In this document: one piece after another, positions 36,601 through 62,575 of the stretch | Numbering within the stretch: the stretch's first letter is position 1 | Layout: the number at the start of each line of letters is the position of its first letter | NCBI GenBank assembly: GCA_030704615.1 | Contig: CM060732.1 | Coordinates: 36,270,001-36,334,000 of the forward strand | DNA: 64,000 nt | From: Takakia lepidozioides | Lineage: Eukaryota > Plantae > Bryophyta | Reading direction: 5' to 3' | Position numbers and translations under genes: made by a program | The notes under the pieces: generated by a model | The model's database searches: none | What the model was told of the DNA's origin: nothing | What the model saw: only the letters and a program-made list of their open reading frames with translations

Positions 36601-37175
36601 ATGTGAACACGTGGAGCAACGGAATTGCGGCACATGTCTGCACTCTATCTGTCTGAAGTGGCAGGAGGCGGTGCGGCCTGACCGTTGGATAATGATGTGT
36701 GTTTTTCAGACGGCAGGCGTACCCTTGACGATTCGAATTTTGTAATGACGCAAAGTCCACGAGGAGACACTTTCGTCCAAGCCTTTCAAAACCAAGTGGT
36801 GCATCACCGCCGTTTTATCTTCTTTTGTCGTGTCTACTTAGTCACCCCTCTCGCGCCCTTTCCATCTGCACTCTTCGCCCATTTTGCCTGTCTCTGTTCT
36901 TCTTATGCTCGAACCTGAGAGGGAGGGAGTGCGTGCACCAGAGAAGAGACATCGTCGCAAGCTCCGAAAATTGTACTTCGGACGTAGGCCGATGCCGAAG
37001 GGGAGGAAGCAGATGCGTCTATAGGAGGAGATTGCCATCTCGTAGCATCAGGCCATGCAGGCAACCCAGCCACCAGTCAGAGCTCCGTGCTATCGGGATT
37101 CGCGCAGCTGATCGAGCACCGAAACCCCCCTCATTTTTCTTCTGCAATTCTTAGACTGTATGCTAAGAGACTTGA

Positions 37176-40100
37176 ATGCAGAAGATGTTTGCATGCCTAA
37201 CCGGAAAGGTGGACGTACTGGAGGGATCGCAGGAATCCGAAGAGCCGCAAGAAGAATCCGTGGAGCTAGCTGCAACATGCACACCCAGCCGATCCACGAG
37301 CACGGGTCTTCCTACCGGGCCTAGCTCTGTGCCTTTCAAGGACGCGGCTTCGAAGGGCAAGTCTTTGCAGTTCAAAGCCCCAAAGAGCGACTCGCGTTCA
37401 AAGGTCATGGAGAATCGCCAGCAGGGGTCGAGCCCTTCTCCAGCAAAGACAAAGAAGAATCAACCCGTCCTTCAACCTGTTTCTGAACCGGACCAGGCCG
37501 TTTCCCCCCTACCAGGCGAATGAAGCAGATCAATTGCAGCAGACACCTTCACCTGCAAGAATGAGGAAGCACAAGGCAATCAGGGGGGAGGGCGGAGCAG
37601 TCTCCCGCAAAACCGATTCCACGAGCTGAAGCCCAGTTCCTGCTTGATTTCCAGCCTGGTGATGTTGGGGGCGTCTCTGCTGCAGCGAAGGCAACGGACG
37701 ACCGATTTCGTCGATCTGGTACCGGAGGAGGGTGCTGCCGCTCAACGTTCGCAGCAAGACCTGACCACGTTGAGGAAGATCTTCAGAATACTGCAGGCCG
37801 GAGGAGGCCGCTGCAATTGCAGAATTGCCCGCAAAGATTCCCCGGAGTGCAGCTCCAGTTGGGGATGCTCCAGCTGTTCAGCCCCTACCGCCACCTGCAG
37901 AAATGTCTCCGGAGGAATTCCAAAGTGCAGTGGATACAATGTTGGAGGAGACACACAGTAGCATTGGCAGAGTTCTGGGCAGCAGGGTATTCCAGTGGAC
38001 TCTTCGAATCTCACTCTGTCGCATGGTCTCCCTTCCCATCGTCAGGCAGGCACTTCCCAGAGATGTGGATAAGCTCAAGTTCGCATTTCGAGAAGGGTAC
38101 CGTCTAGGTTCGCTAGCCTTCTACGTTTCCATTGAGAATGAGGATGGCGAATCTCGTGGACCCACTGCGGATGAATTGTCAACATGGGATACCCACTGGC
38201 ACACTCGCAACGACGAATTCGGGCAACGCTGAAGGATGATCCAGACTTCGGCCATATGTCGGGTAAAATGTTCTTTGTGTGGGACGGGAATCACCGACTT
38301 CTTGCCTGGTGGGAGTACATCAAGCAGAACCATGCCAAGCACAGTGGCTGGCATTACATGGTGGAGTGTGTCATCCTCAAGGTGAAGGCGGCAGACTCCT
38401 CCCTGCTCAAGAATGCCATGGCGGACCTCAACTCGTAAGATACTCATACCCTCCTAAGCACGGTCGAAATGCGGTGCCGCATTTCGGTTTCCAATCTATT
38501 CTGTTTCCGTGCTTCCGTGGACTAAACTGGAGAGTGTGCCTTGCAGGGTCACTGAAAATGCGTACGTGCATACCCACATGGCACATATGCTGTACAGGGT
38601 GAGGAAAAACTGGTCTCACTGATCCGCACATGTTTGGGAAATGCTGGAGCCCGAGCTCATTCAGAAAGCCGTGGCAAAAACTCGGACATGGTATCGTCTC
38701 ACTATGGATGGAATGGCGGAGGTGATATACGTAGTAAGTCATCCTCCCATTTCCCTCTGCTCATCCTTCCCCAATTTTCAGTAATCTTTCCACATGAATC
38801 GAATGTAACGCTTCTGCATGTTTTTGTTGGCAGTCAAACATCAAGCTGGATTTGGCCCATGCCAAACGTTTCTTCATGGAAAGTGAGGGGCAGGTCAAAA
38901 CATTGCAGTCATTGACTGAGCACTTGAAGGAAACCGAGGTCAAGTCCAGAACGAAATATAAGTCAAAGCTTGTGAAGCTGGTGGCCATTGCAGATCCGGC
39001 ACTTGGAAAGGACTTCATCCCCGAGATTGCAAAACACTATTCTCGGGCCATGCAGCCGACCATGCAGTTGGAGAAACTGCATCACCTCTCAACGGCATGT
39101 GTTGAGGCGAAAGAGAAGGTGAGGTTTCAATGCACTGAAGTTCCTTCCTAGCAATAGCCACTCTTATTCCTGCACCTGACATTGGATCGGAAATGGCAGA
39201 CACGGTGGCTGTCGATCTGGAATGCATCGGAGAGTATAAGGACAATGTGGTCTTTTCCACTCGAAGTTTTCGACCCTTCAGTGGATGTGTGGCTCAACCA
39301 CATGACTTGGTGGTTCCAGGTAATTCAAGGTACTTCCCCAGATTTGCTTTTCTGAAATGAATTCCCTGAACTGCTACATGCATGTGACAATGCATGTGAG
39401 AATCGCAGGTAATGACGAATGCGTGGGAACGTTGTTGAACAGGACGTCGTAATCGATGGGGTCGCAGTTCGGGTCAACCAACAATCCCTCCTTCCGGAAA
39501 GCAAATGTGGAGTTCTCCTTCACAAAGCAGTATTCATCGAACTGCTTCGTCTGCATACATAGTGGGGAACAATTAGAAATTGAATGCGGCACCGCATTTC
39601 AAAACTCCTAAGAAAATGAAAGGACGAGCGCCAATGTCGTAATTACCTTCTTCTCTTCCGACCGAAGGCCCAATGTGTTGATGCACGTCCACTTCTTCTT
39701 CAGAATTGGGACGGCGCTCTTGCAGGTCCACTTCGCAATTCATGTCTGCGTGTTTTTGCCTCTACTCGTCAGGACAACCACACAGCCTCTGTCGTCCAAC
39801 ACCATGCGGGCGAGCCCGAATCCTTTCTTCCAAAAGTCCTCGGAGTACCTGTTCCAAGATGGCAAAGCTTGCAGTCCTTCCACAGGCTCTCCGTCCGGAA
39901 TATCCAAGATGATCATATCGCAAGACCACTCAGTGGCATTTCCGCCCCTCCTGCAATCCTTGTCTGCACACACCCTCTCAAAGAACGAGACCATCTTCAG
40001 AAACCCAGGGGTGTCGAAAGGCTCTTCGGCAGCCGCCTTCTTCAGTGCTCTGCCCTTCAGACCCTCCATGGTCTTCATGTATGCCAACTTGGCTGCCCGT

Positions 40101-41685
40101 CCATCCAAAGCCGCCAAGAAACTCTCATTTACACACTGGACTACTGTATCGGGATCCACTTTCGGCCTCTTCATTTCCACCGGCTCGAAAGGGTGCCCCC
40201 CGGGGGGTTGAAGAGTGCCTTCTTTGCTGAGCCTGTTCTCGTCCCTCTCGTGACAACGGTGGGCACATGGGATTTCGGCTGCGTTTCGGGGGGTGGGCTG
40301 TTGCAAAGTCTCCATCGGAGTCCTCTTCGTCACCCTCTTCCTGCACTATCTGTTTCTGCTTGTTCGTTTTCTTGGGTGTCACAACTGCTGCTCCTTGCTG
40401 GCGAGTCCGCTTCTTCGACCCATTCTGTTGAGCCTGCACAGCTGCATCCACCGTCTTCTGTGCCATCTCAGCTGCCTTTTTGGATTGTTCCAGAGCAGCA
40501 GCTTCCTTTCTCGACTCTGGCCGAGCAGGGACACGTCTTTCCTTTCTCTTCTCTTCTGCTTTCGCGTGCAGATCTTTCTCAGACTCGTCAACAATTCCGC
40601 CAGACATGTCCAGGTACCACGGGCATCCAACGAGATGCGCGGCATGCCATTGTTTCTGCATCTCGGGTGTGTAGACACAGCTTGGGCCCGCCACGGTCCA
40701 AGCCATGAAGAACGGGGGCTCTTGAGCCAGGGCCCCTGTCTGAAGAAGCACGTATTTCATATACCTGCAGGGCAGTCATCATGCGTGAGCAAAAGTTGAG
40801 ACCAACGTACTCGCATAGTGCAACCGAAAACATAAAATGCGAATGCGGTGCCGCATTTCCCAGACAAACCTCATAACCAGGCTTCGCATACAAGGACAGC
40901 TGGGCTTTACCTGTAAACAATTCGCATTGCAGCTTTTCCCGCTCCCTCCTGATGTGTAAACTCCACGCTCCTTCTTGCTGTCTGGGGATCCCATCTGGAA
41001 GGGCTGCAACGGAATGTGAAGGCTCCCATCGAAGCCAAAGACTCCTCGGATTTGTCGGAGTCGGAGGAAGAGACAATGGACATTGATGCCGAGGAGAACC
41101 TGGAATACGAGTGAGTGCAAACATTGTAAGTTTGCAAAGCCTTCTGGGTGATTTTATGTCAAACGCATTTCCGGACTGTGGTTCTCATTGGTCTCGTTGG
41201 TGATTGTTATGTGCAGGATTCCAGGATCCGGGTCGAAACATGTAGGGCCTACACTTCCTGCCAGGAAGAATGTCCCGTTCTTTGCGAGGGCCGACTTCAT
41301 GACGAGCCCGGTGAAGGACTACTCCCTTCCTAGTTATGCAGCTAAACTCGCAAATACAGCGATTAGACGATGTGAGAATCCCAGTAAAGTAGAGCAGATT
41401 TTGGAGAGGGCTAGGGAGGACAGAAGGATAAGGAAAGAGTTGGCAACAGCTGAGACAGGTAGACGGGTGCGAAAGTTCATATGTGATTCAGCGGATGAGA
41501 GCGATGCAGACAGGGAGGACGACGACCCAACGGAGGTGAAATGGTCGGTTCCGCAAGGGGAAGATGGGATTTTCGAAAGCCTGGCCAACGAGCAGTCCGC
41601 TGGAGATGAGAAAGACAATGACGGGGTGGAGGCGGAGCAGGACAGTCAAGGACAGGACGACGATAGTGATGATTTTCAAGATTAA
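37176..41685 (+). pseudogene. Transposon cargo gene: ParB/Sulfiredoxin-like domain, putative amino-MTase-like domain and acidic tail; intron-containing, broken by frameshifts and an internal inversion
   Basis: VRQALPRDVDKLKFAFREGY and FFVWDGNHRLLAW (DGNHR at 38283-38297). In the inverted middle segment: CDMIILDIPDG..WN..FW..LARMVLDDRGCVVVL (~39770-39925, minus strand). Plus-strand exons resume at ~40994-41110 and 41218-41685. Confidence 0.62.
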
Positions 41686-41819
41686 TAGAATTTTAATGAA
41701 TTCTCTGTACATTTAAATTATCTTCCAGAGTATATAAAGGAAATTCTCTCCGTCCTTCATGTCCCCTCTCCCATGTGCTTCTCAACGACAACATCGCCCA
41801 AACCACGTCCCTCCCAAAA

Positions 41820-42775
41820 TCGGAAATGCGGCACCGCATTTCCATGTCGAAACGGAAACGTGGCAACTGCAAAAACCTCCTTTGGAAATGCGGCACCACA
41901 TTTCCAAAACTGGGGCAAGAACAATTTTCCGTTTCATGGTTTGGACATCAGAAACTGTTCGGCACGACAGTTTTGCCGATTGCCAGCTCCTTCCATGGAG
42001 GTGAATGGATATGCCACCCCGCGTGCGGAGGTCCAACATGGAAATGCGGTGCCGCATTTACATTTTGGAGATGGACGTTTTTCCAACTGTAGACCCATCG
42101 ACGGAAATGCAGTTCCCCATTCCATGATGCTAGACGGGAATGCGGCACCGCATTCCATTGTCCAATAAGAAATTTCGATGACGTACATGGAAATGCGGCG
42201 CCGCATTTTTAAAACAGACATCGTTGTTTGTCCAATTCCAGACCCTTTGACGGAAATGCGGCACCGCATTACATTGTCCAATAAGAACTTTCGATTGCCA
42301 AACAGGGAAATGCGGTGCCGCATTTCCAAAACAGACATCGTTGTTTGTCCAATTCCAGACCCGTGTGGGCATTCGGTCTTGTTGGACGGAAATGCGGCAC
42401 CGCATTCCATTGTCCAATACGAAATTTTGATGACGGACATGGAAATGCGGTGCCGCATTTTCAGAACGGACATCGTTGTTTGTCCAATTCCAGACCCTTC
42501 GAGGGAAATGTGGCACCGCATTCCATTGTGCTCTCCGGAAATGCGGTGCCGCATTTCAAGTATGGACATGGACAAGCATTAGCGATTGGACATGCTTGGA
42601 CAATTCAAGGTCCAATATGGAAATGCGGTACCGCATTTCCAATTCGAAGTATGGTAATGCCATGTCAAGAAATGAAATGTTGTACAGCATTTCCGTTACG
42701 ACCACAACGGAGGAAAGGGAGCTGCCAGAAATCGCTGCATGGAGAAAAATGAAATGCGGTGCCGAATTTCCGAGC
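41820..42775. repeat. Second array (~15 copies) of the same 22-bp palindrome with different spacers
   Basis: Copies at 41822, 41884, 42040, 42103, 42136, 42189, 42252, 42306, 42388, 42441, 42504, 42537, 42619, 42673 and 42750. Confidence 0.93.
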
Positions 42776-43047
42776 TTCGACATGTACATGTTTCTTTTTA
42801 CTCATACATGGATTTCCTTCACCTCAGAACTCTGATATCGCTGACTCTGGTATATTCATATGGACAGATACATTATAGAAATGAGACCACAAATTGTAAA
42901 CAGTGGGCCAATTACGACAGTTCTTGAACACAATGAAACACAAGCACACAGAAGTGAGGTACGATGGGTTGTTTTATTGATCGAACACGGTGTCTCACAT
43001 TTAGCAACTCCAGACAAATCTAAGCCCTTCCTCCTTCTACATGGGTG

Positions 43048-43690
43048 TCACCAAGTCGACGGAACTTCGATAGCCCTCAAAACAAGCTCATTACTGATGC
43101 GGCACCTCGAGGTAAACTGCAATGCGGTCGATCTGGTGCCCTTGGTGGAGCTGACGACAATGTCATGCCCATCAATCATACCACCATCATACATTGACAA
43201 GGTCACTGTGGGCCTCATGTGCCCGTGCGATTTGTCTTCGCAACTCAGCCGAATGTCTCCATACACTGTAAGAGCGGAGTGAACTCCACAAATATAATTT
43301 TCCCCGGTGCCGTCCTCCCTGGTCTACTGGCAGCAGTTCCAGCGCCAAAGTGAGGCCGTGCGTGATCTGTCCGGCATCCCATTCCACCTTGGTATATCGA
43401 GGTAAACAATTTTCTGGACCCACGGACCGCATTGACCCTCGCCCTCACCTCGCTCAAAGCGGTAATAGCCCTCCAAATACTCCATTGCGCGCAAAGACTC
43501 CCGCTTGATTCCAGAAGCGTCTGTGAAAACAGAGAGCCAGACAATGATGTCTCCTGATTCTGGTTTGAATATAGCATAATCGTGGCAATGATAAGGGCAG
43601 TCAGCAGGATTTCGACGGCACGACATCGTTGAAAAAGAGTAGCGGAGTACGCTCAATGACAGCAGCTCCCGGATGGAGGAGGCAGCAGCA
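43048..43690 (-). pseudogene. Orphan cargo gene A of the MULE (paralog of 55030-55765)
   Basis: DCPYHCHDYAIFKPESGDIIVW, RWNCCQ*, YGDIRL and YDGGMIDGHDIVV..LVLRAIEVP. Internal stop at a Trp codon position. Confidence 0.6.
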
Positions 43691-43825
43691 CGGTGGCTGG
43701 AAGAAGTTCAAGCAAACGCTGCAATTCCTCACAAACACTCCAGGGCACATTTAAATTTTCCCCCTACAGGAACCTGCACGGATGAAGATTGGCTGCTCTA
43801 TGAATGTAGCCGTTTCAGTTTCCTT

Positions 43826-44533
43826 TGTCGTGCGCATACATATCGCTACACAACTACATCGCTGTCCAAAACCACACAACACATGTGCACACCACACACT
43901 AGTATACCACTAGTCTACCACTAGTCCAGCCACTAGTCCAACCACTAGGCTACAACTAGTCAGTCACTAGGCTGCCACTACGCTGCCCACTATGGCAGTC
44001 ACTAGTCCACACAATGATAAAGAAGAAGAATACAAGCACAAGCTCATGCGAGCTCACAAAGCTGAAGCATAAACTCATGCATATATAACCTCATCACTCA
44101 AATACAAGTCAAGCCAAGTGCACCCCACGCCATGGGGAATCCACACTACGGCGCCATAGCTAGGCGCGGTGAGGCTCAACTCGAGAAAGATGAGCCTCCC
44201 GCGCTTGCCGTGAAGATAACCACTCCAGGGCCTAAATCTGCCTTGACCCCTGGATTGACACTTGGGCCAATCCCAAATGTCAATATGTAAAAGCTAGCTA
44301 TTTCCTAGCTAGTTTCACACTAGTGGTAAAATAACTTGACAGCTGTCGTGCGCATACATATCGCTACACAACTACATCGCTGTCCAAAACCACACAACAC
44401 ATGTGCACACCACACACTAGTATACCACTAGTCTACCACTAGTCCAGCCACTAGTCCAACCACTAGGCTACAACTAGTCAGTCACTAGGCTGCCACTACG
44501 CTGCCCACTATGGCAGTCACTAGTCCACACAAT
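43826..44533 (-). repeat. 3' terminal repeat block: A (43826-44015), B (44015-44341), GC, A' (44344-44533)
   Basis: A and A' are 190 bp and identical by eye, with multiple CCACTAG(T) motifs. B matches 54504-54839. Confidence 0.95.
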
Positions 44534-44543
44534 CGCCCCCCTA
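44534..44543 (-). other. Polypurine tract
   Basis: Minus strand reads AGGGGGGCG, then AT, then TGTGTGG (start of the A' repeat). Confidence 0.7.
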
Positions 44544-44791
44544 GCTGGTGCTTAGGTCCCTCTAAGTCCAGGTAGCCACAAGATGTGATAGTGACCATAG
44601 CCTCACTAAGTCCTCCACCACTATCCCTACTACACTCAAACTCGATAGATCAAGAGGCCGGGTGCAAGAGTTGCCCCATCGTTAGTCGCCGTCTTGCAAC
44701 CTGTGAACTTGAGCTTGGGATCTCATGTATTGACTCCTATGAGCTTGGCCTCCCATGTCTTGTTAGCTGCCTCCAGTCATGTCCACTGCCA

Positions 44792-47780
44792 CTATCCCAA
44801 GCAGTGTGGACACAACCAATCTCCGTCAGGAACCTTCTCAAGAGGTGGTGTCAAGCATCCCATATGCCAACCCTTGAGCATCGATCACACACCAGCATGG
44901 TGGCTGCCCCTTTGGCAGACCCACAGAGCATGCACCTCAAACCTGCAGGTACCACTGCCAAGTTTGGGTCAACTCTGCCATCGACATTGGGAAGGTGACA
45001 TGGCGCACAATTACGCACATGGTCCTTCCAAGTCATGCCATCCCGACCCTCCAAGATCAGGACCCCTGAGGGCAACACCTCTCGAACCCTCAGAATAACA
45101 CGCCCTGCAGTAACATCCAGAGTCGTAGGAGCAGTCTGCTGCAAATAAACATAGTCACCAGGGCTAAACCTCCGAACCCCAGGACGATATCCTCCACCAC
45201 GTATAGTGGCATACCTCAACGTATCACGGTGCTGTGCATGGCAAGGTTCTCAAAAGCCATGGGCATGACTTTCTTGAACAACTCTGCACGCTGATCACAT
45301 GCACGTACCCACACGTCCGGATCGTCAAGGTTAAGGACTTGAGCAGTGTCCCTACGAATGGCTGCAGGCAAATCCGGCTCTCGGCCAAAGAGAAGGAAAT
45401 ATGGTGAGGAGGCAAGTGATGCTTGTTGCTGAACCTGTAGCCCATGGCTAACCAAGGAACCTGAAGATCCCAATCTCCTAGGTGTCCCTTCTGCAAGCCA
45501 TACTTGCGCAAACCCCTCTTCACCGTCTGAACAACTCTCTCTGCTAAGCCATCGGCCTCAGGATGATCCCGAGAAGTGGTGCGGTGGTCTATCAAGGCTT
45601 TATCACACAAAGCCTGAAACTCCCCCAAGAACTCTCTCCCTTGGTCCGTGAGTACCTCAGCTGGAGCACCAAATCGGCTAAGCACACGATCCAAGAATGC
45701 ATACGCAGCCCCCTCACTAGCCTTGTCAGGCAATGGAACCAACTCAATCCACTTGGAGAAGTGCTCCACCATCACCAACACATATCTGTGGTGGCGCATA
45801 GTCAGTGGCAACGGTCCTGCGAAGTCAAGACTCCACCTGTAGCCCAATCCCATGATGGTAAAGGATGCAACTGTGGTGTAGGGGCGTTGAATGAAGCACG
45901 CACCCTGTCACACACCATGCACCTAGCCACAAACTGTTGCACCTCTGTATGCATACCACGCCACCAATACTGCCCCTGCAGTAAACTGTGAGTGCGTCGC
46001 ACTCCAAAATGCCCCAACTCCTCATGGGCATGCGCACTAACCGTGCACGCTGTGTGGGGTGAGGCACAATCCTCACCCGACCATCCTCCCACACTCGAAG
46101 TAGGTGTATCCCCTCCCACTTGAACCTCTTGGCTCGTTGCAGGATCCGATCCCTCTCCCTGGCAGTCACAATGGCTGCCGTGTCTCCCGTGCGGAGGTAG
46201 TCCAACACAGCCGAATCCTCATGTATATCTCTGGCACCACCTAGCTCATCACTAGCCTCAGGGTCCTCAGACACTCCGTCTACAGTCATCCCTGTTGTAG
46301 GTCCAATCTGACCTCCCGATGCCAAGATACACAAAAATGCAGATGCGTGCCATCCCGGCACCATCTCCTCGTCCGTCTCACCATGCCACCGAGCTCCAGT
46401 GTCATCCTGCTGGCTCATGCATGGATTGCGACTCAATCCATCCGCATCCCGATTGACCAAACCCGGTCGATGCACAACCTGAAAGTCATACTCCTGGAGT
46501 ATAAGTGCCCACCGTGCAAGCTTCCCCGTAAGCTTGTCTGACTCCATCAACCACTTGAGTGGCTGGTGATCCGTGACAAGGGTGAAAAGATTGCCGTATA
46601 GATAGCACCTGAAGTGTGCCACGGCCCACACTGCAGCTAAGCACTCTCCCTCATATGAGCTGTACTTAGCCTCTGCAGCGTTGTTCGAGCGGCTAGCGTA
46701 AGCCACTACGAACTCTCTTCCCTCATCATCCACCTGTGAGCACCGCTCCAAGCCCCAGCATGCTCCAATCCGTATGCAGCTGAAAGGGACGCCCCTGATA
46801 GGTCGTCTCAAGATAGGCGCCGAGGTCAACCTCGCCTTGAGCTCTTGAAAAGCTCGTTCCTGCTCATCTTCCCACTGCCACTCCTGGTCCACCTTGGTCA
46901 GCTTGGTTAGAGCCTTTGCAATGGTACTAAATCCCTTGACAAACCGTCTATAATAGTTTGCCAACCCCATGAAAGCTCGAACTCGGCTCACATCCGTGGG
47001 GCGTGGAATTTGTGCAATGGCCTCTACCTTAGTCTGCTGTACCCCCAATCCTCCAGGATATATCATGTGACCCAGATACTCAATCTGGTTGTGGAAAAAC
47101 TTGCACTTCCCCGGATGCAACTTCAATCCGTGCGCTCTCAAGCGCTCCAATACCACCTGAAGGTGTCTCTCATGCTCCTCCATCGTAACACTAAAGATGA
47201 TGATGTCATCTATGTAGCACCGAGCAAAGTCCACCCCTGCTAGAATCCTATCCATGACTCTCTGAAACTCTGCAGGAGCATTCTTAAGCCCAAATGGTAA
47301 GAACCGCCACTGATATAGGCAATCCTTGCCGTGCTCATTGATCCCCCAGAATGCCGTCTTCTGCTTGTCCGCCTCCTTGATTGGCAACTGGTGATATCCG
47401 GATCGTAAATCCAAAGTGCTAAAGGCCTTAGCATGCCCGATGGCATCAAAGATCTCCTCTGGTGTTGGCATGGCATACTTATCGGACTTGGTCTGACGAT
47501 TTACAGGCCGGTAATCACCGCACATACGTCTCTCCGTCCAATTGCCATAGACATCCTTCTTGGCTGGCATCACTGTGGCTGAAGCATACTCTCCACCAGA
47601 GAGCTCCACCAAACCTGCCTCCCAGAGATCTTGAGTCCTCATCTGAATCAAAGACCTCTCCATGTCACTGTATCTATAGGGTCTCCGAAAGATTGGCGTG
47701 TCAGTGGCCAACTCAATACGGATCTCTTGACCCTTCAGTGCTCCCAAGTCCTTCAAACTGAAGGCAAAGCAATTCCTGTA
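44792..47780 (-). pseudogene. pol: pol C-terminal part: reverse transcriptase, RNase H, integrase and PHD finger, several frameshifts
   Basis: RT: RMCGDYRPVN, LDLRSGYHQ, LPFGLKNAP, YIDD. RH: EGECLA, TDHQPL, ADGLSR. INT: HEELGH..CMVC, LDFAGP, TDQGREF, GLAER. PHD: CMLC..CDRC..WHMGC..WLCPHC. Confidence 0.93.
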
Positions 47781-48219
47781 AGCCCTCAGGAACCGCCGTA
47801 TACGTCGTCTCTCTCCTCCGGTGACAATGGGTCCAATGTCAGGCTCCCAATTGTCCTCCGTAACTACAACCTTAAGTCCAGTGGGCTTAGAGGTAGAGGA
47901 CGCGTCCCGTGGTTGCTATGCTGCAACCTCTTGAGCAGTACTCCCTACCTGCTCAGTCAATGACAAGGCTCATCCTGCCCCATCATCTCATCCTTGAGGA
48001 CCTCCTCAACCGAGAAGAATCCCCAACCTCATCCATCACAGCCGCCTTGGGCTGCCAACTCCCTCTGAACCTCGAGCACCTCCCACGTGTGCCATGGATG
48101 CATGCACCCCGTGGTCCTCACATGCTCGCCCCCACTCACTGCCTGTACCGTCTCGGTAGGCAGAGAGACCATTGAGGGAAGTGTATTCCGCACTCTGCGT
48201 TGCTCAGCAGAGCCAAGCT

Positions 48220-49170
48220 GATAATCCAGGTCAAGCAATTGAGATCCATTGCTTGCCCCAACACTTGACGACGTGATGCCTCAGAAAGAGACGACACCGT
48301 GGTACCAGTGGTAAAACCCATTGCCCGCTCACGCTCGTCAGCATTAGGCTCCACTAACTGCTGCAACTGAGCATCCCACAGGAGGCCAGGTCCACTATCC
48401 CGGAAAGCATGCGATCCTGGGAAGCTGAGCAGTGTAGGTAATGCTGCTCGTGGTTGACCCACCTTGTTGACCACTGCCAAAGGCGAACGGTCATCGTGTC
48501 TCACACGCTGAGACTGCCTCCCTGTGTCCAGAATGTTATCCACTGTGAGATGTGCTGGCCGCTGCCCCATCAAATGCACGCTTGAGCAGTGCGGGTGGCA
48601 TCAAGTTAGTCCACCATAGCCGTGGACGATGAGCCCGTGACCCCACTGTAGCTGCATCTAGCAACACTGCTGACCCAAGCCACGACCGGACTTGATGCAC
48701 ACTGGCCATCACCCTGGCCCGAGAATCGCCCATCAGTGGCACATTCTCCAAGATGTATGCTGGAGATACAGCTTGATGAAGCTGCAAGTGGCGCAAAACC
48801 CGCACCATCTCCCAAAACAGACCCGACCTCGAGTCTCGCAATCCATTGCCATGCCCGGCTGATGAATGCCCTTGGCAGGGCCAACCTGCCACTACCAGAT
48901 CAATGGAGCCAACCCGCTCCAAATCCTGCGCCCCCAGCAACGAAATGTCTGCTGGCAAGGCCTGCTGATATCCACGAATTGCAGACACCGACAACAACTC
49001 AGGGTACCGCTGCACCAACTGAGCAACATGGCGAAGTGAAACGCGTCGTGCAGTCTCATCCCTCTCCACATACAGGTAACGCCGAACTCGTACACCTGCC
49101 TGTAACACAGCAGCCAATCCGGTGCTGATCCCGCCAAACAAGTCCAGAAGACAAATGCCTTCATCCGGAT
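48220..49170 (-). CDS. C5 cytosine DNA methyltransferase domain within pol (one frameshift near 48560)
   Basis: Motif I LDLFGG, II YVERD, IV AGWPCQG (catalytic PC), VI ILENV, VIII AHRPRLWWTN, IX ERERAMGF and X RRQVLGQAMD. Confidence 0.92.
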
Positions 49171-49589
49171 ACTGCCACACAATAGGTGTGGTGTCCAATG
49201 GAGACAATTGAGGTGGTCCTGGTGCAATCCCCACACTCTCCTCTCCTGACGGTACAAAAGCCTCCACCCAGGCTTGTTGCACCCGTCGATCAGCATCCCG
49301 CTGCAAATCCTTGCTCGTGCCCCACAATGGAGTCTGAGCAACCATGGTAGGCAACTCCGCCATACCATACATGTCATCCTGCTCTCCCGGAGGTGGTACA
49401 TCCTCTGAATGAGCATTGCCCTCAAGCAACTCTCTAGGCCAACTCACTGCCGCTGTGAATGCTGCTAGTGTCGGCATCTTGCCTCGCTGGGCAACCGCAA
49501 CTCCTCCTATGAACGTCACAGGGAGCTGCACACGCCGGCCCTCCCCTGACTGCCATGCAGGCCTATAGGAAGCTGACTCCTCCCAAAAA

Positions 49590-49880
49590 TCCAGGGTGAA
49601 GCCCATGGGGTACAACACTGCCCCACCAACCAGGACATCGTATGAGACTGCGTCTGTCACAATGGCCTTGGCTCGCATCACTGAGCCATCTGTAGGGTGA
49701 TCCGGCCGTAGTCTGATAGCCAACTCACGCCGTGTCATGCCCCGAGCCTGCTCCGATCCTCCCAGAGACGTCTGTATCTGGAAAGGACAAGGCTCCATAT
49801 CCGCCTCCGTGAGGCCCAAGCCTGCAATAGCAGCTCTGCCCAGCATCAATGGCTGAGCTCCCGAGTCCAACAAGACCGCA
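49590..49880 (-). CDS. Retroviral-type aspartic protease domain, in the same ORF as the methyltransferase
   Basis: VLLDSGAQ active site and YDVLVG closing motif in ORF 48536..49906. Confidence 0.85.
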
Positions 49881-49899
49881 GGGGTACCTCTTGCCTGCC

Positions 49900-52070
49900 G
49901 GTCCACTCAAACAGAAAATGCCATCCTGGTTGTCTAACATGACAACTCCAGGTGTCACCATGGCGCGCTCAATGGCTGGCCTAGCTGGCAGCTCCATCAA
50001 CCTGGCAGCTGCAGCTTGCCATGGCGCCGCCGTGGCAGTCTTGACCCTCAAATCCGAGGATCCCTCCGGCACTACACCTCCCACTATCTCCGCAGAAGAT
50101 GAAGTAACCTCCCCACTCTCACAGAGTGTAGCTGCCAGCCTGAACACCTCAGCTGGTCTTACCCCCGGCGTCGCAATCATGGTAGCCGAGAACAATGGAG
50201 CCTGGCACACAGATGTGGCCGCTCCTAGCAGCACACTAGCTGCCGTAGCCTTGGCAACACTAGGTAGTGGTGCTACCCGTGTAGCTCTCCCCAATGGCAT
50301 AGTAACCTCCGCCTCGGTAACAGTCGGGCGAGAACTAGGTGCCATGGATGGCGTCGACACTGTCTCCGCCAATGTGAATGACTGAGGAAGCCTAGCCTGA
50401 CGGCTTGCCTCCCCACGCTGTGGATCCAACTCCACCTCTGCACCTCGTGGCTCAGGAACTCGTGCTGCTCCTCGAGTCACGGCTGCAGCAGACTCCACCT
50501 GCACTAGTGGTAGTGCTGCTCCACACATGAATCCCATGCCTCCCATATCTCCTCCCTCAGGAGCAGGAGGTGGACCATCCGGCCTTAGAGCCGGTACCAC
50601 CTGAGCTGTAGCCATGGCAGCGAGCCTCTGCTCTAGCTGCTGAAGCCGGTTGGCCATGCCTTGGTCAACACCCTGACCTCGCGTCCTTGGCCACGTTGAG
50701 CTTGCCCTTGGCCTGCACCTCGTGGCTGGCCACCTCGTCCTCTCTGGGCTGCTCCACCTCGCCCCCGGCCACCATTGTTCCCTTGGAACTGGCCTGGGCG
50801 CAACTCAGGATGCAAACCATAACACTGGCCTCTCCATGCCCGTGCTTGCCACAATGCCCACACTGCAACTGTGCAGGCTGTGCATGTGCCGGCCCTTTGC
50901 CTCCCTCTGGGCAATCCTTCTTGACATGGGGTCCTCCACATGTCCAGCACACCACATCCGCCCGTTGTTGGCCAGCAAATGAAGGGAGAGACCCCTGCAT
51001 CTGAGGTCCTCTCTGCCCTTCCCTGAGCTTCACCTGAGCCCCCTTGTTGCCTTGAGCACGTTGAGGTAGTGGTTGGCTAGGAGCACCACTACCCCGTGGT
51101 GTCTCCTTAGCAAATCCCACCATGACCACTCGTTCCTCCACCATGTTGAGCTCTATCCGCTCTGCCAGCAAAAACACATTTGCTAAGGTGGGTTGGGCCG
51201 CTTGTAGGAGAGTTGCATCCCGCACCCTTCTCCTCAGCTCCTTGTCCAATATCCCATACCAGAATTGGACTGCCTGAGCTTCCGTAACCCCTTGGGTTAC
51301 ATTTATCAAGCGCCTCATGCGAGTGAAAGCCTCCCTCAAGCTCTCGGTCGGCTTCCGTTGGAACTCTTGCAAGCTCCGCAACTTCTCTGTCCTCACCCCT
51401 TGGTAGTTCCCTCTCAACTCTTCGAAGAACTCCACAACAGGGTTGAAGGCAGGCACGGGTGCTAGTGCTGGTGCGGTAGTGGCTTGGGTGGACGTCGTAG
51501 CTACTGTACCACCAGTCCCACTGCTGCTTGCTGAAGCTGCCGGTGCAGCGGCAGGTGTAGCCACTGCCCTCGTGGCTCTAGTGCCCCTAGTGATGGAGAC
51601 ATAGTCGGGTGACCAGTACATCCTCCACTCCTCGATCTCAACCTCATGCCCCCGCCTGAACTCATGGTAATCATCCATAGGCGGCCCCTCAAGGTGCTGA
51701 AACAGCCCTTTCCATGCCATGAAGGCGTAAATAGTTGTGGATTGCGCATTTGCTGCAAATCACACCAACTATCAAACTCTTGGATAAAATCATCCAACTC
51801 GATGGTGCCCACCGCCCCAGAGTACCTTCGTGGCCCCTTGGTAGCTCCATACATCTCCTCCATTGTGTCCCACAACAATGGCAAAGAAACAACTTGCACC
51901 GCCGGTATGAGTCCTCCTGATTCACAATCCGAATCAGAACCTTCCGTGGAAGACACAGGAGGTGAAGGTGGCCTAAACCGCACACCTCGTCTCGTGTACC
52001 CACTAGTATCGCTAGTGCTCGAACCGGCACTGTCCCCAGCAACTAGTGGCACCTCCGTGTTGACACTCAA
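49900..52070 (-). pseudogene. gag: gag with two zinc knuckles and linker, frameshifted
   Basis: LDDFIQEFDSW, FQRKPTESLREAFTRM, CWTCGGPHVKKDC and CGHCGKHGH..C. Confidence 0.82.
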
Positions 52071-52804
52071 CCGGTCATGAACATGTCCCTAACCCCCTCT
52101 CCACAAGGTAACCGGGTAGAGAACCTGTTGCGGCTTATGGTTTGGAATACTAAGTTCCTAACATAGCCTACACCTGTACCTGCATCCACCGCAAGCACTC
52201 CTATGGTTGGCTGGTCATCACCTCCAACCTCACCACAGGAGAAACAATGATGGTCTGGCTGGTCATCACCCCAGCCTCACCATCGACAGCATGCTCTAGG
52301 ACTGGCCGGTGATCAAATCCGGACCAATCACCTATAAAAACAAGCGCCCACACAAAACTAGCATGGCGCACAGTCAAGCATGCAGGTATGGAGGGGATCC
52401 AAACACAAGAAATCAGAACGACAACTCCCCACACCAAAAACAACTCCACGGTGTTGCTCCTGCAAGGACACCCCAGCCCAAACCCGGACTGACTCTTGCC
52501 TCCACCTACGGAAAGGTCTTGGCCTAATGAGAGGGTGGAAACTACGAGGAAGAGAAGCTAAAGCAATGCCTAACCCCAGCATGCCTCATCCCAACACTCT
52601 CCTCTCCTCTCTTCCCACTTGCATGACCATGGGAATATCATGAAGATACTCCTCAAACCGCCCTCCACGAGCTTCAAAATTCGGCCTTCCAGACCACATG
52701 CCAGTCCTTAGGCAGTCCACCAGTGCCTCCACGAGTCAGCACAGGCCGTCCACAGGTCAACACGGGCCACCACAGACCAGCACAGGCCCACACAGCTCAC
52801 TGGT

Positions 52805-53490
52805 CGTCACAGTCCCACAGGCCACTGGGCACAGCCTGTCACAGCCCCTCACAGCCTGTCACAGGCCTGTCACAGGGCCACAGTCACAGTCACAGCCTAG
52901 CCAGCACAGCCCGTCACAGCCCCAAAGGCCTCACATTACATCACATCACAGCCCGTCACAGCCCCTCCGTTTGTTTCACAGCCTGTCACATCCATCACAG
53001 CCCGTCACAAAGGCCTCACGGCCTGTCACAGCCCTCACAGCCCCTCACACATACACAGCCCGTCACAGCCCCACAGGGCACAGGGCACAGCCTGTCACAG
53101 CCCCTCACAAGCCCGTCACAGCCCCAAAGGCCTCAGGCACAGCCTGTCACAGCCTGTCACAGCCCCTCACAGCCCCAAAGGCCACTGGGCACAGCCTGTC
53201 ACAGCCTGACACAGCCCGTCACAGCCCCACAGGGCACAGGGCACAGCCTGTCACAGCCCATCACAGCCCATCACAGCCTGTCACAGCCTGTCACACAGCC
53301 CGTCACAGCCCCACAGGCCACTGGGCACAGCCTGTCACAGCCCGCTCACAGCCCCACAGGCCACTGGGCACAGCCTGTCACAGCCGCGTCACAGCCCCAC
53401 AGGCCTCAGGGCACAGCCTGTCACAGCCGCACAGCCGTCACAGCCCCAAAGGCCACTGGGCACAGCCTGTCACAGCCTGACACAGCCCAA
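52805..53490. repeat. Degenerate ~10-11 bp tandem repeat (CACAGCC(T/C)GT) in the retrotransposon 5' leader
   Basis: Dozens of CACAGCC units. The two ORFs spanning it are repeat artefacts. Confidence 0.9.
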
Positions 53491-54487
53491 GCTGTGCCAC
53501 AGCCATACAGCAGAATCAGCTCCTTTGCTTCATTTCTTGCACCCACAAACTGATAATACAAGCTTCAGCAGGCTGAAAGCCATGCTCTACATGCCCTACA
53601 GGGAAACCAGCCCCTTCCTTCCTTTCTTGCACTCCCACACTAAAAGTGCAAGCCTTCACCAGGCTGATAGCATGCTCCACACATACATTGCCCTCACATA
53701 AGGGAAGTCAGCCCTTCCCTCTTCCTTGCTTGCCCTCCAAGCTTGAAGATGGAAGCTTCAATGAGCTGAATACATGCTCCACACATGCAACCTCTTCACA
53801 CAAGAGATATCAGCCCCCTATCTTGGCTCCTTGGCTCCTTGATGCTCTCTATGAACAGACTAAGCACTCCATAGCCTTTGCCAAGCTCCTGAAACCCTAA
53901 GGCTTACATTTCCAGCCACAAGACACTTCTCTTTGTTGCAAGAACTCTTCTTCCAAGCTCTAAACCCTAGGTGCACATTCCATGGCCTTGCCGCACCTCT
54001 TAGCTCCTGATCCAGCCCTGCTCTTGCCATGACAAGAGCCCTCTCAATGCTGAAGCTCGAGATTGAAAACCCAATCTCACCATACTCCACAAAGTGCACA
54101 CTGATTTGCCCCAAGCAAAATCAGCCCTTTCGCTTGGTCTTGCAATCCTTCACACAATGAAAGCTCGCATTCCAAGTCCAGTTCTCAGCTTTGCCACCAA
54201 AGCCACTATAACCTGCTCTTGACTGGTCCTCTTCCCAATCGTGCTTGCTCATGCATGTACACAATCTGGAACCATCAAGGTGCTCTGGAATTACCTGCAG
54301 CATGGTGCTTTTCATCTCTGAAGCTGAAGATCGATGCCAAGGTCTACCACCTCGTAACCCACATCGCCTCCGCTTCTAACAACTAAGAGCTCCACGGTGC
54401 TCCTTGCATAACAACTTGGTTTCTCTCATTCTCAAGCAAAAACCACAAGTGCTACAACTAACTCGTATCTAGCACTCATAGATACGA

Positions 54488-54503
54488 GCTCATCTTTCTC
54501 GAG
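54488..54503 (-). other. Primer-binding site complementary to the element's own terminal repeat (self-priming type)
   Basis: Plus-strand GCTCATCTTTCTCGAG abuts repeat B' and is the exact reverse complement of CTCGAGAAAGATGAGC at 54669-54684. Confidence 0.78.
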
Positions 54504-54839
54504 TGATAAAGAAGAAGAATACAAGCACGAGCTCATGCGAGCTCACAAAGCTGAAGCATAAACTCATGCATATATAACCTCATCACTCAAATACAAGTCA
54601 AGCCAAGTGCACCCCACGCCATGGGGAATCCACACTACGGCGCCATAGCTAGGCGCGGTGAGGCTCAACTCGAGAAAGATGAGCCTCCCCCGCGCTTGCC
54701 GTGAGATAATACCACTCCACTCCAGGGTCCTAAATCTGCTTTGACCCCTGGATTGACACTTGGGCCAATCCCAAATGTCAATATGTAAAAGCTAGCTATT
54801 TCCTAGCTAGTTTCACACTAGTGGTAAAATAACTTGACA
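54504..54839 (-). repeat. 5' terminal repeat B' (half-LTR only)
   Basis: Matches 44015-44341 with a few substitutions and indels. No A segment on either side. Confidence 0.95.
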
Positions 54840-55029
54840 CCTTCCCTGCCATGCAAACTATGGGCAGTCAGTGCCAGGTGGGCCTATAGCCACTTGAGAC
54901 GACGAAGTCCATTCCCCTTTCGATGTAAATGCGGCGCCGAATTTCCATCCGGGGGATGGACTTCAGTGACAGATTTCAAACTATACCCCGTGGATGAGAA
55001 AGAGGTATTGGTTCATCCACCGCTGGCGT

Positions 55030-55765
55030 GATGAACACGTTACACGATGATTGGTGGGTACGTGGGACCCAGATGCTCCATTGTTGGAGCCCGCCCTGCT
55101 ATTCCGCTTCTCATTATTTCGAAAATCTAAGGGCTTCGTTGCTGTCCGCAAGGTCATTGTCATCGGCATCAAAGACGTCCTCAGGTCCTCTTTTGCAAGG
55201 ATGCCGTGCTTCCGGAACCGGGACGACTGCCCTTATGAAGGCTTCGATTATGCAATGTATTCGGCCACATCGGGAGACATCGTTATCTGGTACACAGTTT
55301 ACACAGAAGATACTGGTTCGAATGTGGAAACATTGTCCGCTTTTGAGTATATCCATCCCAGGCCACTACGCCTTCGAGCGGGGTGACGATCTTGGTCTGA
55401 GGAGTCCGTGGCTCCTGCGCATCCTTGATTCCGATTTTCCCAGCTACGACGGGCACCCATGCAGAAGAATGCGCACTGCTATCTGTTGCGGTGGAACTGC
55501 TGCCAGTGGACTTGGGTGGACTCCATCGGAGAGACGTATACTCCTGAAGGAATGCGCTCCTCTTCTCCATTGTATGGGGACATTCGCATTGGTGTGGACA
55601 ACGAAAACGTGAAGCTTTCCATATTCGATGGTGGTATGATTGAAGGGCACGACATTGTGGTGAACATCAACAAGGGCGGTACAACGGCTGCAATCCAGTT
55701 TACCTGGAGGAGCCCGATGACTCATAGCTAGTTCTCAGAGCAGTCGAAGTCCCATTGACAACGTG
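55030..55765 (+). pseudogene. Orphan cargo gene B of the MULE (paralog of 43048-43690)
   Basis: DCPYEGFDYAMYSATSGDIVIW, RWNCCQW, YGDIRI and FDGGMIEGHDIVV..LVLRAVEVP across frameshifts. Confidence 0.6.
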
Positions 55766-57033
55766 ACTTGTATTCAGAAGGCACAGGGCTAAAGATTTGT
55801 TTGCACAATCATCACAGTAGACGTGCTTCAAATGCAATTCATGTGGATCAATAAAAACCCCAAAGTGCCGTCTTTTTGTTCTATTCTGTATCCATCGTTC
55901 CCAGAATGCATCATTCTTCATTTCGTTTGGGATTGGGAGTGTGGGTGGATTTTGCAAGTGGCTGGTAGACTGAAATGGGCCCCCATTGTACAGAGCAGTA
56001 TCACCCTACCATTCGCGAAACATTGCCTTTCAATATGTAATTCTAAAAAACATTGCCGAACCTCCTTCATCGGGAGGTCCTTCTCCCCCTATGACCATGA
56101 CACCCTAAACCCTATTCCCGCGGACACCCATTTCCGGAAAATATTCCTGCTCATGTTTTTTACGACACTTACGACTCTGCTCATGGCTCATGCCGCTCAT
56201 GGCTCATGAAATAGCAGCCCCTGGTGTTTCATTCAAATCATCTTAGGAGTCCTTCAGCTCTCTGATGTGTAAATGAGAATTATGTCAAAGGTTGCAAGTG
56301 AATTTTTAATTTGAGCTCATGCCCTATTTGCAATAATCTCAAGGACTAGTTAAAGCTTTGTGGAATGTTCTTGAAATGTGGGTGCCCTGTGGGTGCAAGA
56401 TTAGTAAGATTCTAGAAAGTAGTTCTCAAGAATACACATGCCACCCACGCTGCAAACCAAGTCTAGTTGATCCTCCAAAACAATGGGCAGAAACTTCAAA
56501 TCATTGAGGCCCAGTATGTTTGAAACTACCATGTATACATTTGCATTGATTTGGATCTGAAACAACACGTAATGTAACAGTGTACTACCTCATCGAGGCC
56601 CAATATATTTGACAGACATTTACAACCGATCATGAGTCCTATCACGCAATTAAACAGACTTAGCTCGACAACATTGAAAGTAAAAATAGAATTTATAGTC
56701 TGTCAATATTGAGTAAATATTACACATTTCAGCTGGCATATGCTGCCCGCACAAGGTATACACGTAGAAGTCCTGTAGAATAGATAACACTGGTGCCACC
56801 TCCTACAGTCATGACAAGTTCTAGCATCTGGCAGAGAGAGAGAAGATAGAAATAAGAAGAACAACCAAATTACTAGATAGGCATCTTCATCAAAGAAGTG
56901 CAAAGATGCAGTGAGGCAACTTATTAGAGGCAAGTCCAGGAGAACACTAGTACTAAATTGAGCAACTAACGATGGCATTGCGCCAAGCTAGTACATGCAG
57001 GCGGCTTTACGAACTGTGACATTGTTGCAATCT

Positions 57034-57924
57034 TCAATCAGTCAGTCTTCGGATGCATGTCTTGGTAATCAAAATCCTCAAAGAGCACTTCTTTGCTTCT
57101 GTCACCTTCTCTGGAATACAACCTGATGCACCATCTAATTCTGTCACCTTGCATCCACCGGCTTCTGTGACGTTCCTTGAAGTGCAACCTGCTACGCCAA
57201 CCAATTCTTTCACCTTGCAGGATCCACCGGCTTCTGTCACCTTCTTTGAACTGCATCCTGCTGCACCGACCAATTTTTTCACCTTGCAGCATCCACCGCG
57301 GGCTTTGGTCACCTTCTTTGAACTGCAACCTGCACCAACCAGTTCTTTGATCACCTTGCGGCATCCACCGGCTTCTCTCACCTTCTTTGAACTGCAACCT
57401 GCTGCACGAACCAATTCTTTTACCTTGCAGCATCCACCCTCTTCTGTCACCTTTGAACTGCTACTTGCTGCATCAACTAACTCTTTCACCTTGCATCCAC
57501 CGGCTTCTTTCGTTTTCTTTGAAGTACAAGGTCCTGCTGCACCAACGTCCAACTCTTTCACCAGATTTGACGTGTAACCACCAGCTTCAGTACTCTCTGT
57601 GGAAGGCACCTGTCTCGGGTTGCATCCCACTCCAGACTCCGAATCCAGAAAAGCCAAAAAAGCGTAATCACGAGAACGTCTCAACTGCTCCACTCTTGTT
57701 TGAAACGAAGGACGTTGGACTGGTGGCGAGAGCTTAACCCTCTTAGACTCTCCCCCTTTGATCGCAGATTTGGAGATTTCTTCTGACAAGAGAGGACGCT
57801 TCCTACCCATAGCTGCGAGCTCACGCTCCTTGGTCATGCCGCTTTTTGGCAGATTGCCCACGTTAGCCTCTGGAGCTGCTTCCCACAACCAAGTCAAATC
57901 CCGCAAATACTCTTGTTTCCACAT
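57034..57924 (-). CDS. Hypothetical protein with ~7 Cys/Lys-rich 21-23 aa tandem repeats
   Basis: Open frame with repeats of the form VTEAGGCKVKELVGAAGCSSKK, a basic N-terminal half (GRKRP, SKRVK) and a non-repetitive end LRILITKTCIRRLTD. Confidence 0.5.
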   Translation of the reverse strand: MWKQEYLRDLTWLWEAAPEANVGNLPKSGMTKERELAAMGRKRPLLSEEISKSAIKGGESKRVKLSPPVQRPSFQTRVEQLRRSRDYAFLAFLDSESGVGCNPRQVPSTESTEAGGYTSNLVKELDVGAAGPCTSKKTKEAGGCKVKELVDAASSSSKVTEEGGCCKVKELVRAAGCSSKKVREAGGCRKVIKELVGAGCSSKKVTKARGGCCKVKKLVGAAGCSSKKVTEAGGSCKVKELVGVAGCTSRNVTEAGGCKVTELDGASGCIPEKVTEAKKCSLRILITKTCIRRLTD

Positions 57925-58435
57925 GATGCAGCTGTGCACAATCTTGTTCCTGGCGCACACCGCCCAACCCAATAAACTAGAACAGTACGCCCACAGTACA
58001 CACACAAACTGCAGTGCGAGTGAGTGAATCAACGAACACACCTGCAGCGCTAAACCAGAGCGTGCAGAGAGAGAGGTGCGAGAATGAGATGAGGCTCGTT
58101 TACAAGTCATACTTGTATGTTTCCCAAATCTGTTCTCCTATTTTTATGCTCATCTACTTTTCGCATACCTTTTGCTTAATTTGCGTTTACCTCCTTTTTC
58201 ATACATACATGTCCACAACCTGCTTTTCCTCATTTGGGTGTTGACACCCAATTTGGTCTAATTACGTGTCCGCACACTAACTCGACGCTTCGGACATGAC
58301 TGAATCAGTGAATGTGAATGCGTGAATATTCCACTTCACATCCAAAACACTTCTAAGATAATTTAAATCACATCGATTGAAGCTCTAGACTCCTGTAGGC
58401 ACCCTTCTCAATTCCCCCGATCTACTTTCTATGCC

Positions 58436-62214: not shown

Positions 62215-62575
62215 ACGGGGTCAGAGAAGCAGTCACCCCATGCGTTTTTCCAGGCCAAAGATTCGATGAGTATGTGTGTCTGTGTTCGTCTCTCAGATAA
62301 TCAGTCGTTCTCTGCCATCCCATACGGTTTGCTAGGCCCAGGATCGATGAGTATATGTGATTGAATGCAAAAAAAAGAGAATCAGTCGTGGGGTCAGAGA
62401 ACCAGCCACCCCAGACGGTTTGCTTGGTCCAGGATCGATGAGTATATGTGATTGAATGCAAAAAAAAGAGAATCAGTCGTGGGGTCAGAGAACCAGCCAC
62501 CCCAGACGGTTTGCTTGGCCCAGGATCGACGAGTATATGTGGTTGAATTCAACTATGAAAATCAATCGTGGGGGG
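62215..62575. repeat. ~90-bp tandem repeat, about 4 copies (2 near-identical)
   Basis: CAGGATCGATGAGTATATGTGATTGAATGCAAAAAAAAGAGAATCAGTCGTGGGGTCAGAGAACCAGCCACCCCAGACGGTTTGCTTGG. Confidence 0.88.

Follow-up and report, generated by a model that had tools for sequence, protein, structure and literature searches.

Retrotransposons that carry a DNMT3-type DNA methyltransferase (DNMT) were earlier described in a charophyte and in dinoflagellates, with no tractable host among them. The charophyte element, KnitGypsy-Dnmt3 of Klebsormidium nitens (PMC5890265), combines the reverse transcriptase (RT), RNase H (RH), and integrase (IN) of a Gypsy element with a non-permuted DNMT3-type domain inside its open reading frames (ORFs) and, according to the legend of Fig. 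4c, has DIRS-like split repeats. SymbioDIRS-Dnmt3 of Symbiodinium (PMC5890265) also bears a DNMT3 and shows the repeat layout A-coding-B-A-B, but it encodes a tyrosine recombinase, not a DDE integrase. We analyzed a 64,000-nt stretch of Takakia lepidozioides contig CM060732.1 (the window), which holds at 43826-54839, on the minus strand, a complete Gypsy retrotransposon of 11.0 kb with TG...CA ends and a 4-bp target duplication, CCTT. The element encodes Gag, protease, a DNMT3-type methyltransferase, RT, RNase H, integrase, and a PHD finger, the last unlike KnitGypsy-Dnmt3. Its assignment to the KnitGypsy-Dnmt3 kind is, in our judgment, virtually certain; new are the extension of this kind to land plants and the repeat anatomy, with a long terminal repeat (LTR) of composition B+A and a palindrome. 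The original prediction of a DNMT-bearing Gypsy element in a land plant is upheld, although the element belongs to a described kind and is probably not a separate land-plant event.

Tf1/Sushi and the plant element Tcn1 have, like the window element, a primer site complementary to their own 5' LTR (PMC7175516, PMC6317226), but they carry ordinary LTRs and chromodomains, whereas the window element has split repeats, a PHD finger, and the DNMT. PAT, TOC, and Ngaro share the A1-B1-A2-B2 layout (PMC4157794) but use a tyrosine recombinase, in contrast to the rve integrase, TG...CA ends, and 4-bp duplication found here. EpiLTRs/DAM-LTRs are also LTR elements with DNA methyltransferases (bioRxiv 10.64898/2026.05.21.726589), yet their DNMT is sister to DNMT4 and is paired with Dam and a chromodomain. 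That preprint sets "streptophyte Gypsy-DNMT3" apart and has no bryophyte carrier in its main text; a 2025 survey cites "streptophyte" elements and, in the text available, leaves bryophyte carriers unnamed. The supplement text of de Mendoza 2018, as far as available, names Physcomitrella and neither Marchantia nor Sphagnum (PMC5890265), and the excerpts of that paper do not treat the ends, target duplication, priming, or split-repeat route of KnitGypsy-Dnmt3. Within the open-access literature searched, Gypsy-DNMT3 reports were algal only, with none from land plants, and no report of a circle/palindrome integration route for such elements was found.

A DNMT3-type methyltransferase in a multicopy Gypsy element

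Pfam searches of the window ORFs returned RVT_1 (E 3.5e-33), RT_RNaseH (E 5.5e-28), and rve (E 2.8e-14), all downstream of the methyltransferase, and the domain order Gag-protease-RT-RH-IN is that of Ty3/Gypsy. Paired identical LTRs flanking the body are absent, the repeats being split as A-coding-B-A-B. The window element is a non-canonical LTR element, though its RT, RH, and IN are Gypsy-type. The protease alone gave a weak Pfam match (PF13650, E 0.05); its identity to the corresponding segment of four Marchantia relatives is 51-61% over 78-110 residues, and other family members pass the Pfam protease cut-off.

The minus-strand ORF 48536-49906 contains the LLDSG protease motif and methyltransferase motifs I (LFGG), II (YVE), IV (GWPCQ), VI (ENV), and VIII (HRPRLWW), in agreement with the earlier claim that motifs I-VIII share an ORF with the protease upstream of RT; the check then proposed against PF00145 came out positive for this ORF (E 5.5e-13). 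Motifs IX (ERERAMGF) and X (LGQAMD) come next in canonical order but in another frame (ORF 48136-48600), and tblastn of Marchantia relatives places the frame switch at ~48565-48580. The predicted series I-X is present in order and with its residues, in a domain that, as assembled, is split by the frameshift and not intact. A PDB sequence search (48 matches) placed DNMT3A first (E 4.7e-10) and DNMT3B next, ahead of DRM-type enzymes (2e-5) and M.HhaI (2.4e-4). For the unbroken relative P0029 (77% identity across motifs I-VIII), AlphaFold gave a model with pLDDT 88 and pTM 0.88; a fold search with this model again returned DNMT3A/B first (E 4.5e-19), and all PDB matches listed were DNMT3. Judged by these sequence and predicted-fold matches, the methyltransferase is DNMT3-type, as its motif style had suggested. 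A DRM enzyme was rejected because the motif order is canonical, not permuted (VI-X before I-V) as in DRM. The host enzymes PpDNMT3a/b (Yaari et al. 2019, PMC6453930) have the same DNMT3-type catalytic domain but, unlike the element, are cellular genes with a C-terminal DUF3444.

The methyltransferase is 69-77% identical to relatives from Marchantia, Calypogeia, and Sphagnum troendelagicum (47% to one gappy Sphagnum model), whereas the linker before it is only 30-43% identical; Gag reaches 70-74% (Marchantia) and RT 67-78%. Across 150 distant representatives, the catalytic Cys is kept in 147, the motif VI Glu in all, and both motif VIII Arg in 147-150. The 20 named land-plant proteins retain the Cys in 17 cases (two gaps, one Ser) and the motif IV Pro in 18. 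Identity relative to the linker, together with these residues, suggests purifying selection on the DNMT at the level of a protein proxy, and the neutral evolution named earlier as a possible refutation was not borne out. Retention of the Cys, Glu, and motif VIII Arg favors catalysis, and the enzyme encoded by intact copies is quite probably active. In 81 of the 150 representatives, as in Closterium P0064, motif IV reads EC instead of PC (Pro to Glu, GWEC), with the catalytic Cys retained.

The element was found in 13 of the 17 listed public runs, from six studies and three organism codes (some runs comprise 1-4 million letters), and contigs of X1 and X6 cover all 30 bins of it evenly; it is multicopy. 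The contig is that of a plant, with PPR, F-box, and NmrA genes among the neighboring ORFs. The hnRNP exon at 17332-18648 has its best named full-coverage matches in Calypogeia fissa (89%) and Riccia fluitans (88%), also matches Sphagnum (78-80%), and is 93% identical to a Physcomitrium protein over 64% of the query. Judged by these similarities, the bryophyte nature of the host is secure, these matches by themselves pointing to a likely liverwort affinity, and the possibility, named earlier, of a non-plant contig can be dropped. It is barely conceivable that the methyltransferase is contamination, or a piece of a host gene caught by chance, and does nothing for the element: the domain is indeed frameshifted in the window copy, and a relative (P0050) is filed under a bacterial metagenome-assembled genome, but the same position recurs in named Marchantia, Closterium, and Klebsormidium proteins and in at least 150 clusters at 50% identity. 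This recurrence, the even contig cover, and the neighboring plant genes refute it. The P0050 entry itself (NCBI, Obscuribacterales) is likely plant or algal contamination.

Relatives and the place of the methyltransferase

The first search returned 27 long proteins matching the domain, among them 15 named Marchantia proteins and 1 from Sphagnum; the second returned 74 proteins, with 21 from Marchantia, 2 each from Calypogeia, Sphagnum, and Closterium, and 1 from Klebsormidium. The methyltransferase lies behind the protease or Gag in relatives from all five genera, and it precedes RT in Closterium P0064 and, between protease and RT, in K. nitens P0078, as in the window. No named fern, lycophyte, hornwort, or seed-plant protein occurs among the 27 and 74 matches, a weak negative because transposon ORFs are often masked. 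A profile search gave 595 clusters at E 1e-30 or better. RT or RNase H is present in 77 of the best 150 of these; the DNMT follows in 73 of the 77 and precedes in 4, a ratio biased by the seven loci of the DNMT-after type included in the search profile. The domain is family-wide and not the single-copy oddity against which the original prediction had cautioned.

In the RT tree (19 rows with at least 70% RT cover), the window element groups with Marchantia (100/99), and 10 elements of a second group (DNMT after RNase H in the 8 whose order was read) split from the 9 others (100/99). KnitGypsy-Dnmt3 falls on the same side of this split, which includes one long branch, as the window element; the two are 41-50% identical in the DNMT and 44% in RT, and the window host is a land plant. 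The DNMT tree (59 rows, 26 gappy or near-duplicate sequences of 78 having been dropped and 7 added) contains a bryophyte group of 14 rows (100/100) and a DNMT-after-RNase-H group of 13 rows (98/92) on an unresolved backbone, with the inferred SymbioDIRS relatives L017, L021, and P0027 outside the Gypsy DNMT group. It contains no host DNMT3 or DRM rows; the DNMT3-type assignment comes from the sequence and fold matches above. Within the bryophyte group of the tree, Sphagnum is nearer to Marchantia than the window element is, and old paralogous lineages or transfer between bryophytes may lie behind this sequence pattern.

The original prediction embedded the enzyme in the Gypsy polyprotein. Its place behind the protease is as predicted, whereas in the bryophyte relatives the enzyme mostly ends the Gag-protease ORF. 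Motif X was present in 43 of 85 proteins examined for ORF layout. Because 9 of the 15 close bryophyte-type proteins with motif X end 71-93 residues past it (2 end sooner), the DNMT likely closes a Gag-protease-DNMT ORF in bryophytes, with RT in a further ORF. KnitGypsy-Dnmt3 differs in this respect, its DNMT being placed in Pol (PMC5890265), and the ORF continues into RT in Klebsormidium, Closterium, and several further relatives. Two points tell against this layout: 4 of the 15 close relatives do continue into RT, all four being NCBI gene models that are possibly spliced, and relatives were searched only up to 2000 and 2280 residues, so that longer read-through proteins would escape.

Scans of metagenome, viral, and prokaryote contigs (30, 5, 5, and 14 loci) returned no DNA of the bryophyte family; the best loci were 39-45% identical with the DNMT after RNase H, and the rest were prokaryotic or dinoflagellate-like. 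An RT scan of the viral contigs found nothing. Loci L001-L010 and proteins P0017, P0020, P0023, and P0214 form a large Gypsy group with a DNMT3-type domain between RNase H and integrase, plus PHD. A Scenedesmus pol belongs to this DNMT-after-RNase-H type; a chlorophyte Gypsy-DNMT3 was not found described in the literature searched. P0019 (1417 aa) is a DIRS-like protein whose single chain unites RT, a Dam adenine methyltransferase, and a DNMT3-type domain akin to those of the Gypsy elements; it may link DIRS and Gypsy as regards both split repeats and DNMT3.

Because carriers exist among Marchantia polymorpha gene models, the DNMT target can be addressed experimentally in a model plant for which methylation mutants are available. 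DNMT counts can be distorted where annotated methyltransferases of Marchantia or Sphagnum belong to transposons, as some do, and LTR finders would likely miss elements that lack paired LTRs.

Split repeats, candidate primer site, and proposed route of insertion

Self-comparison of the element yielded repeats A1, B1, A2, and B2, in element sense, arranged A-coding-B-A-B. The element begins with TG and finishes with CA, and CCTT flanks it on either side in this one insertion; a 5-bp target duplication was rejected since it does not fit, whereas 4 bp does. Between B1 and A2 lies a GC that forms part of the palindrome GACAGCTGTC, whose halves equal the outer ends and which is the sole palindrome of at least 10 in the 519-nt unit. 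The 16 bases that follow A1 are the exact complement of 54669-54684, whereas complements of this kind were at most 11 long across 189 interior control windows, and none of 5000 shuffles reached 16. A tRNA-type primer site was rejected because the sequence after A1 does not start with TGG. Self-priming is very probable. From the primer site after A and the polypurine tract before B, it follows that the reverse-transcribed LTR is B+A. The insertion would then be a circular permutation of B-A-coding-B-A in which the ends have been closed, giving the A2/B2 join, and the palindrome of the 5' LTR has become the point of opening. Between the candidate primer and a point past the primer site (54440-54684), the leader is predicted to fold into long stems (about -105 kcal/mol over 221 nt, computed without a shuffle control) that recall the U5-leader stem of Tf1.

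We propose that transcription starts inside A1 at the 16-nt stretch, which would pair with the primer site as in Tf1, where priming involves an 11-nt pairing and RNase H cleavage (PMC7175516). Reverse transcription would yield a linear cDNA with B+A LTRs, whose two LTR ends would be joined in a two-LTR circle, giving the A2/B2 join. Integrase would then cut the CA-GC-TG palindrome within the 5' LTR and lose GC, leaving A-coding-B-A-B with TG...CA ends. Foamy-virus integrase is known to cut a palindromic two-LTR junction, at the LTR-LTR join itself (PMC1180852). We regard the two-LTR circle route as fairly probable.

Contigs from other runs bear on this route. In a separate study, one contig (X5 record 21) spans the B/A junction with 43 nt on either side; other insertions end at the same two positions, 44341 (X12, X5) and 44344 (X6); and the A/B join is also found in X6. 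All three loose ends at 44015 among those listed continue into the primer site. X6 and X12 contain a subfamily with a shorter B that retains the palindrome-proximal 45 nt; the contigs of X12, a run that may be RNA, are mostly less than 95% alike. L006/L007 is only distantly related, with 33% identity in RT and LTRs unlike those of the window in sequence. It has a G8 tract and then an 824-nt TG unit with a CGTCA-GC-TGACG palindrome 200 nt in, units joined end to end, and an 11-nt complement that begins immediately behind the unit, at its first following base (reached in 4 of 5000 shuffles); the unit holds two other palindromes.

Several points weigh against the circle route. The window has a short polypurine tract; a single insertion shows both ends together, and a 4-bp match arises by chance at ~1/256; L006/L007 are assembled contigs without flanks, so that their landmarks are read from contigs and not from an integrated form; and the landmarks were not identified in six loci (L001-L005, L008), most of them without recognizable LTRs and with CAGCTG common there. 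Split repeats might instead arise without an integrase-cut circle, for example by a DIRS/PAT-like template jump, autointegration, or post-insertion rearrangement of a B-A-coding-B-A copy. A1-B1-A2-B2 repeats are indeed typical of PAT and Ngaro (PMC4157794), and a single complete insertion was seen, but no tyrosine recombinase match was found among the nine ORFs scanned (2.4-kb leader ORFs not included), the ends are TG...CA with a duplication, and other insertions end at the same internal site. Rearrangement of a single copy cannot account for the split repeats, because the layout of KnitGypsy-Dnmt3 (PMC5890265) and the landmarks recurring in L006/L007 agree with those of the window. We consider these alternatives unlikely and retain the two-LTR circle.

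If true, the circle route would make this a retrotransposon that normally integrates from a circle, the form regarded as a dead end in other LTR elements. How an integrase element may acquire DIRS-like ends becomes, with this repeat anatomy, a concrete question open to testing. A wider generalization, to a green-lineage-wide Gypsy clade, still present in many copies in liverworts and mosses, with circle integration via an internal palindrome in place of the cDNA ends, tRNA-free priming, and a Gag-level DNMT3 that pre-methylates the circle, is put forward only tentatively.

Table 1. Coordinates of the element and its parts in the window
Feature	Position	Strand	Support or remark
Target site duplication CCTT, left	43822..43825	.	
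Entire Gypsy-DNMT3 element	43826..54839	-	11.0 kb, TG...CA ends
Repeat B2, element 3' end; end-to-end join with A2, one base shared	43826..44015	-	Same join in public run X6
Repeat A2, 327 nt	44015..44341	-	
B1/A2 junction palindrome GACA-GC-TGTC, halves equal to the outer ends; candidate integrase cut site	44338..44347	.	
Repeat B1, 190 nt	44344..44533	-	190/190 identical to B2
Short polypurine tract AGGGGGG, two bases ahead of B1	44536..44542	-	
PHD finger, integrase C-terminus, split by frame change	44800..44900	-	PHD intact in Marchantia P0079
Integrase, H2C2 and rve core; several frame changes	45000..46240	-	Pfam
Reverse transcriptase and RNase H; frame change near 46730	46389..47780	-	Pfam
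Methyltransferase target-recognition region and motifs IX-X, different frame (break ~48565-48580)	48226..48561	-	68-77% to bryophyte relatives
DNMT3-type methyltransferase motifs I-VIII	48572..49168	-	Pfam and PDB sequence matches
Aspartic protease, motif LLDSG	49550..49879	-	Motif and identity to Marchantia relatives
Gag, zinc-knuckle-like motifs; frameshift near 51720	50836..51863	-	PF03732 E 0.002 (below cut-off); 70-74% to Marchantia
Tandem repeat array within 2.4-kb 5' leader	52725..53488	.	
Primer-binding-site position, immediately after A1	54488..54503	-	Exact complement of 54669-54684; not tRNA-like
Repeat A1, 336 nt, element 5' end	54504..54839	-	Versus A2: 324/337 columns identical, 2 substitutions, 11 gap columns
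16-nt stretch within A1, complementary to primer-site position; candidate transcript 5' end and self-primer	54669..54684	-	0/5000 shuffles reach 16
Target site duplication CCTT, right	54840..54843	.	

Possible target of the enzyme, state of the copy, and neighborhood

Translated as a single Gag-protease-DNMT ORF, the enzyme would be abundant in the particle. The protease would free it to methylate the cDNA or the circle ahead of insertion. CG would be the most likely context, since SymbioDIRS-Dnmt3, taken here as an analog, methylates CG de novo in yeast (PMC5890265). The original prediction saw in such methylation a possible camouflage or self-regulation. Whether its own cDNA is the target is evenly balanced in our assessment, which draws on this analogy. 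Against self-methylation stand two observations. KnitGypsy-Dnmt3, the Gypsy-borne enzyme, gave no methylation in its one published yeast test, a result called inconclusive (PMC5890265), and the element bears no composition footprint, because its CpG observed/expected ratio (0.48) is not clearly below that of the flanks (0.61, 0.52) or host ORFs (0.32, 0.48). Both observations would also suit an enzyme acting on host chromatin near the insertion or on other transposons, or a DNA-binding module working with the PHD finger, in a family otherwise as described; the Pro to Glu change of motif IV in 81 of 150 distant representatives and a Gag-level ORF that could supply free nuclear enzyme point the same way. 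Fusion to Gag, however, points to the particle. Catalysis is favored by the catalytic Cys, the Glu, and the two motif VIII Arg, each retained in 147-150 of the 150 representatives, and the Pro is kept in 18 of 20 land-plant proteins. We consider such targets or such a module rather improbable. Taken whole, the account of a multicopy bryophyte Gypsy-DNMT3 element that is self-priming, inserts from a two-LTR circle, and is predicted to methylate its new copy is one toward which we lean. If the wider generalization above is true, land plants would have, besides their own enzymes, a second source of de novo methylation that is mobile.

The window copy, as assembled, is frameshifted inside the methyltransferase, where other copies differ. 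At no fewer than 11 places, one of them inside the DNMT, a common indel relative to the window is present in contigs from several runs, so the frame breaks are not family-wide. The copy may not be dead but a recent insertion whose frameshifts are uncorrected long-read assembly errors in a repeat, a reading that we rate slightly below its opposite. In its favor, B1 equals B2 over 190 nt, the 2 substitutions between A1 and A2 are accompanied by 11 gap columns, X8 contigs show 43 substitutions and 30 gaps against the window over ~4.7 kb, gaps thus being unusually frequent, the 11 or more listed indel places recur across runs, and nearby host ORFs of 899 and 397 codons remain open. Only 3 of 11 indel places, however, lie in single-base runs of at least 3, and many X1 contigs lack an indel at those places. 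The gap excess itself fits assembly error and decay equally.

The element is flanked by two paralogous coding stretches in divergent orientation at 43011-43651 and 55176-55803, a 65% identical inverted pair with no Pfam match. Upstream in window coordinates, at 30700-42650, a short palindromic motif (GGAAATGCGG..CCGCATTTCC) recurs dozens of times in arrays with 53- and 106-nt spacing; the arrays adjoin transposase-like ORFs at 31692-33518, which have no Pfam match, and may be subterminal repeats of a DNA transposon. Host genes comprise an open PPR frame of 899 codons (6813-9512) of the plant organellar-editing type, an F-box gene (4552-5745), and an NmrA-like reductase (2152-3120). Finally, an ORF at 57034-58137 contains 22-24-residue repeats (69-nt units), and a 91-nt tandem repeat occupies 62314-62586.

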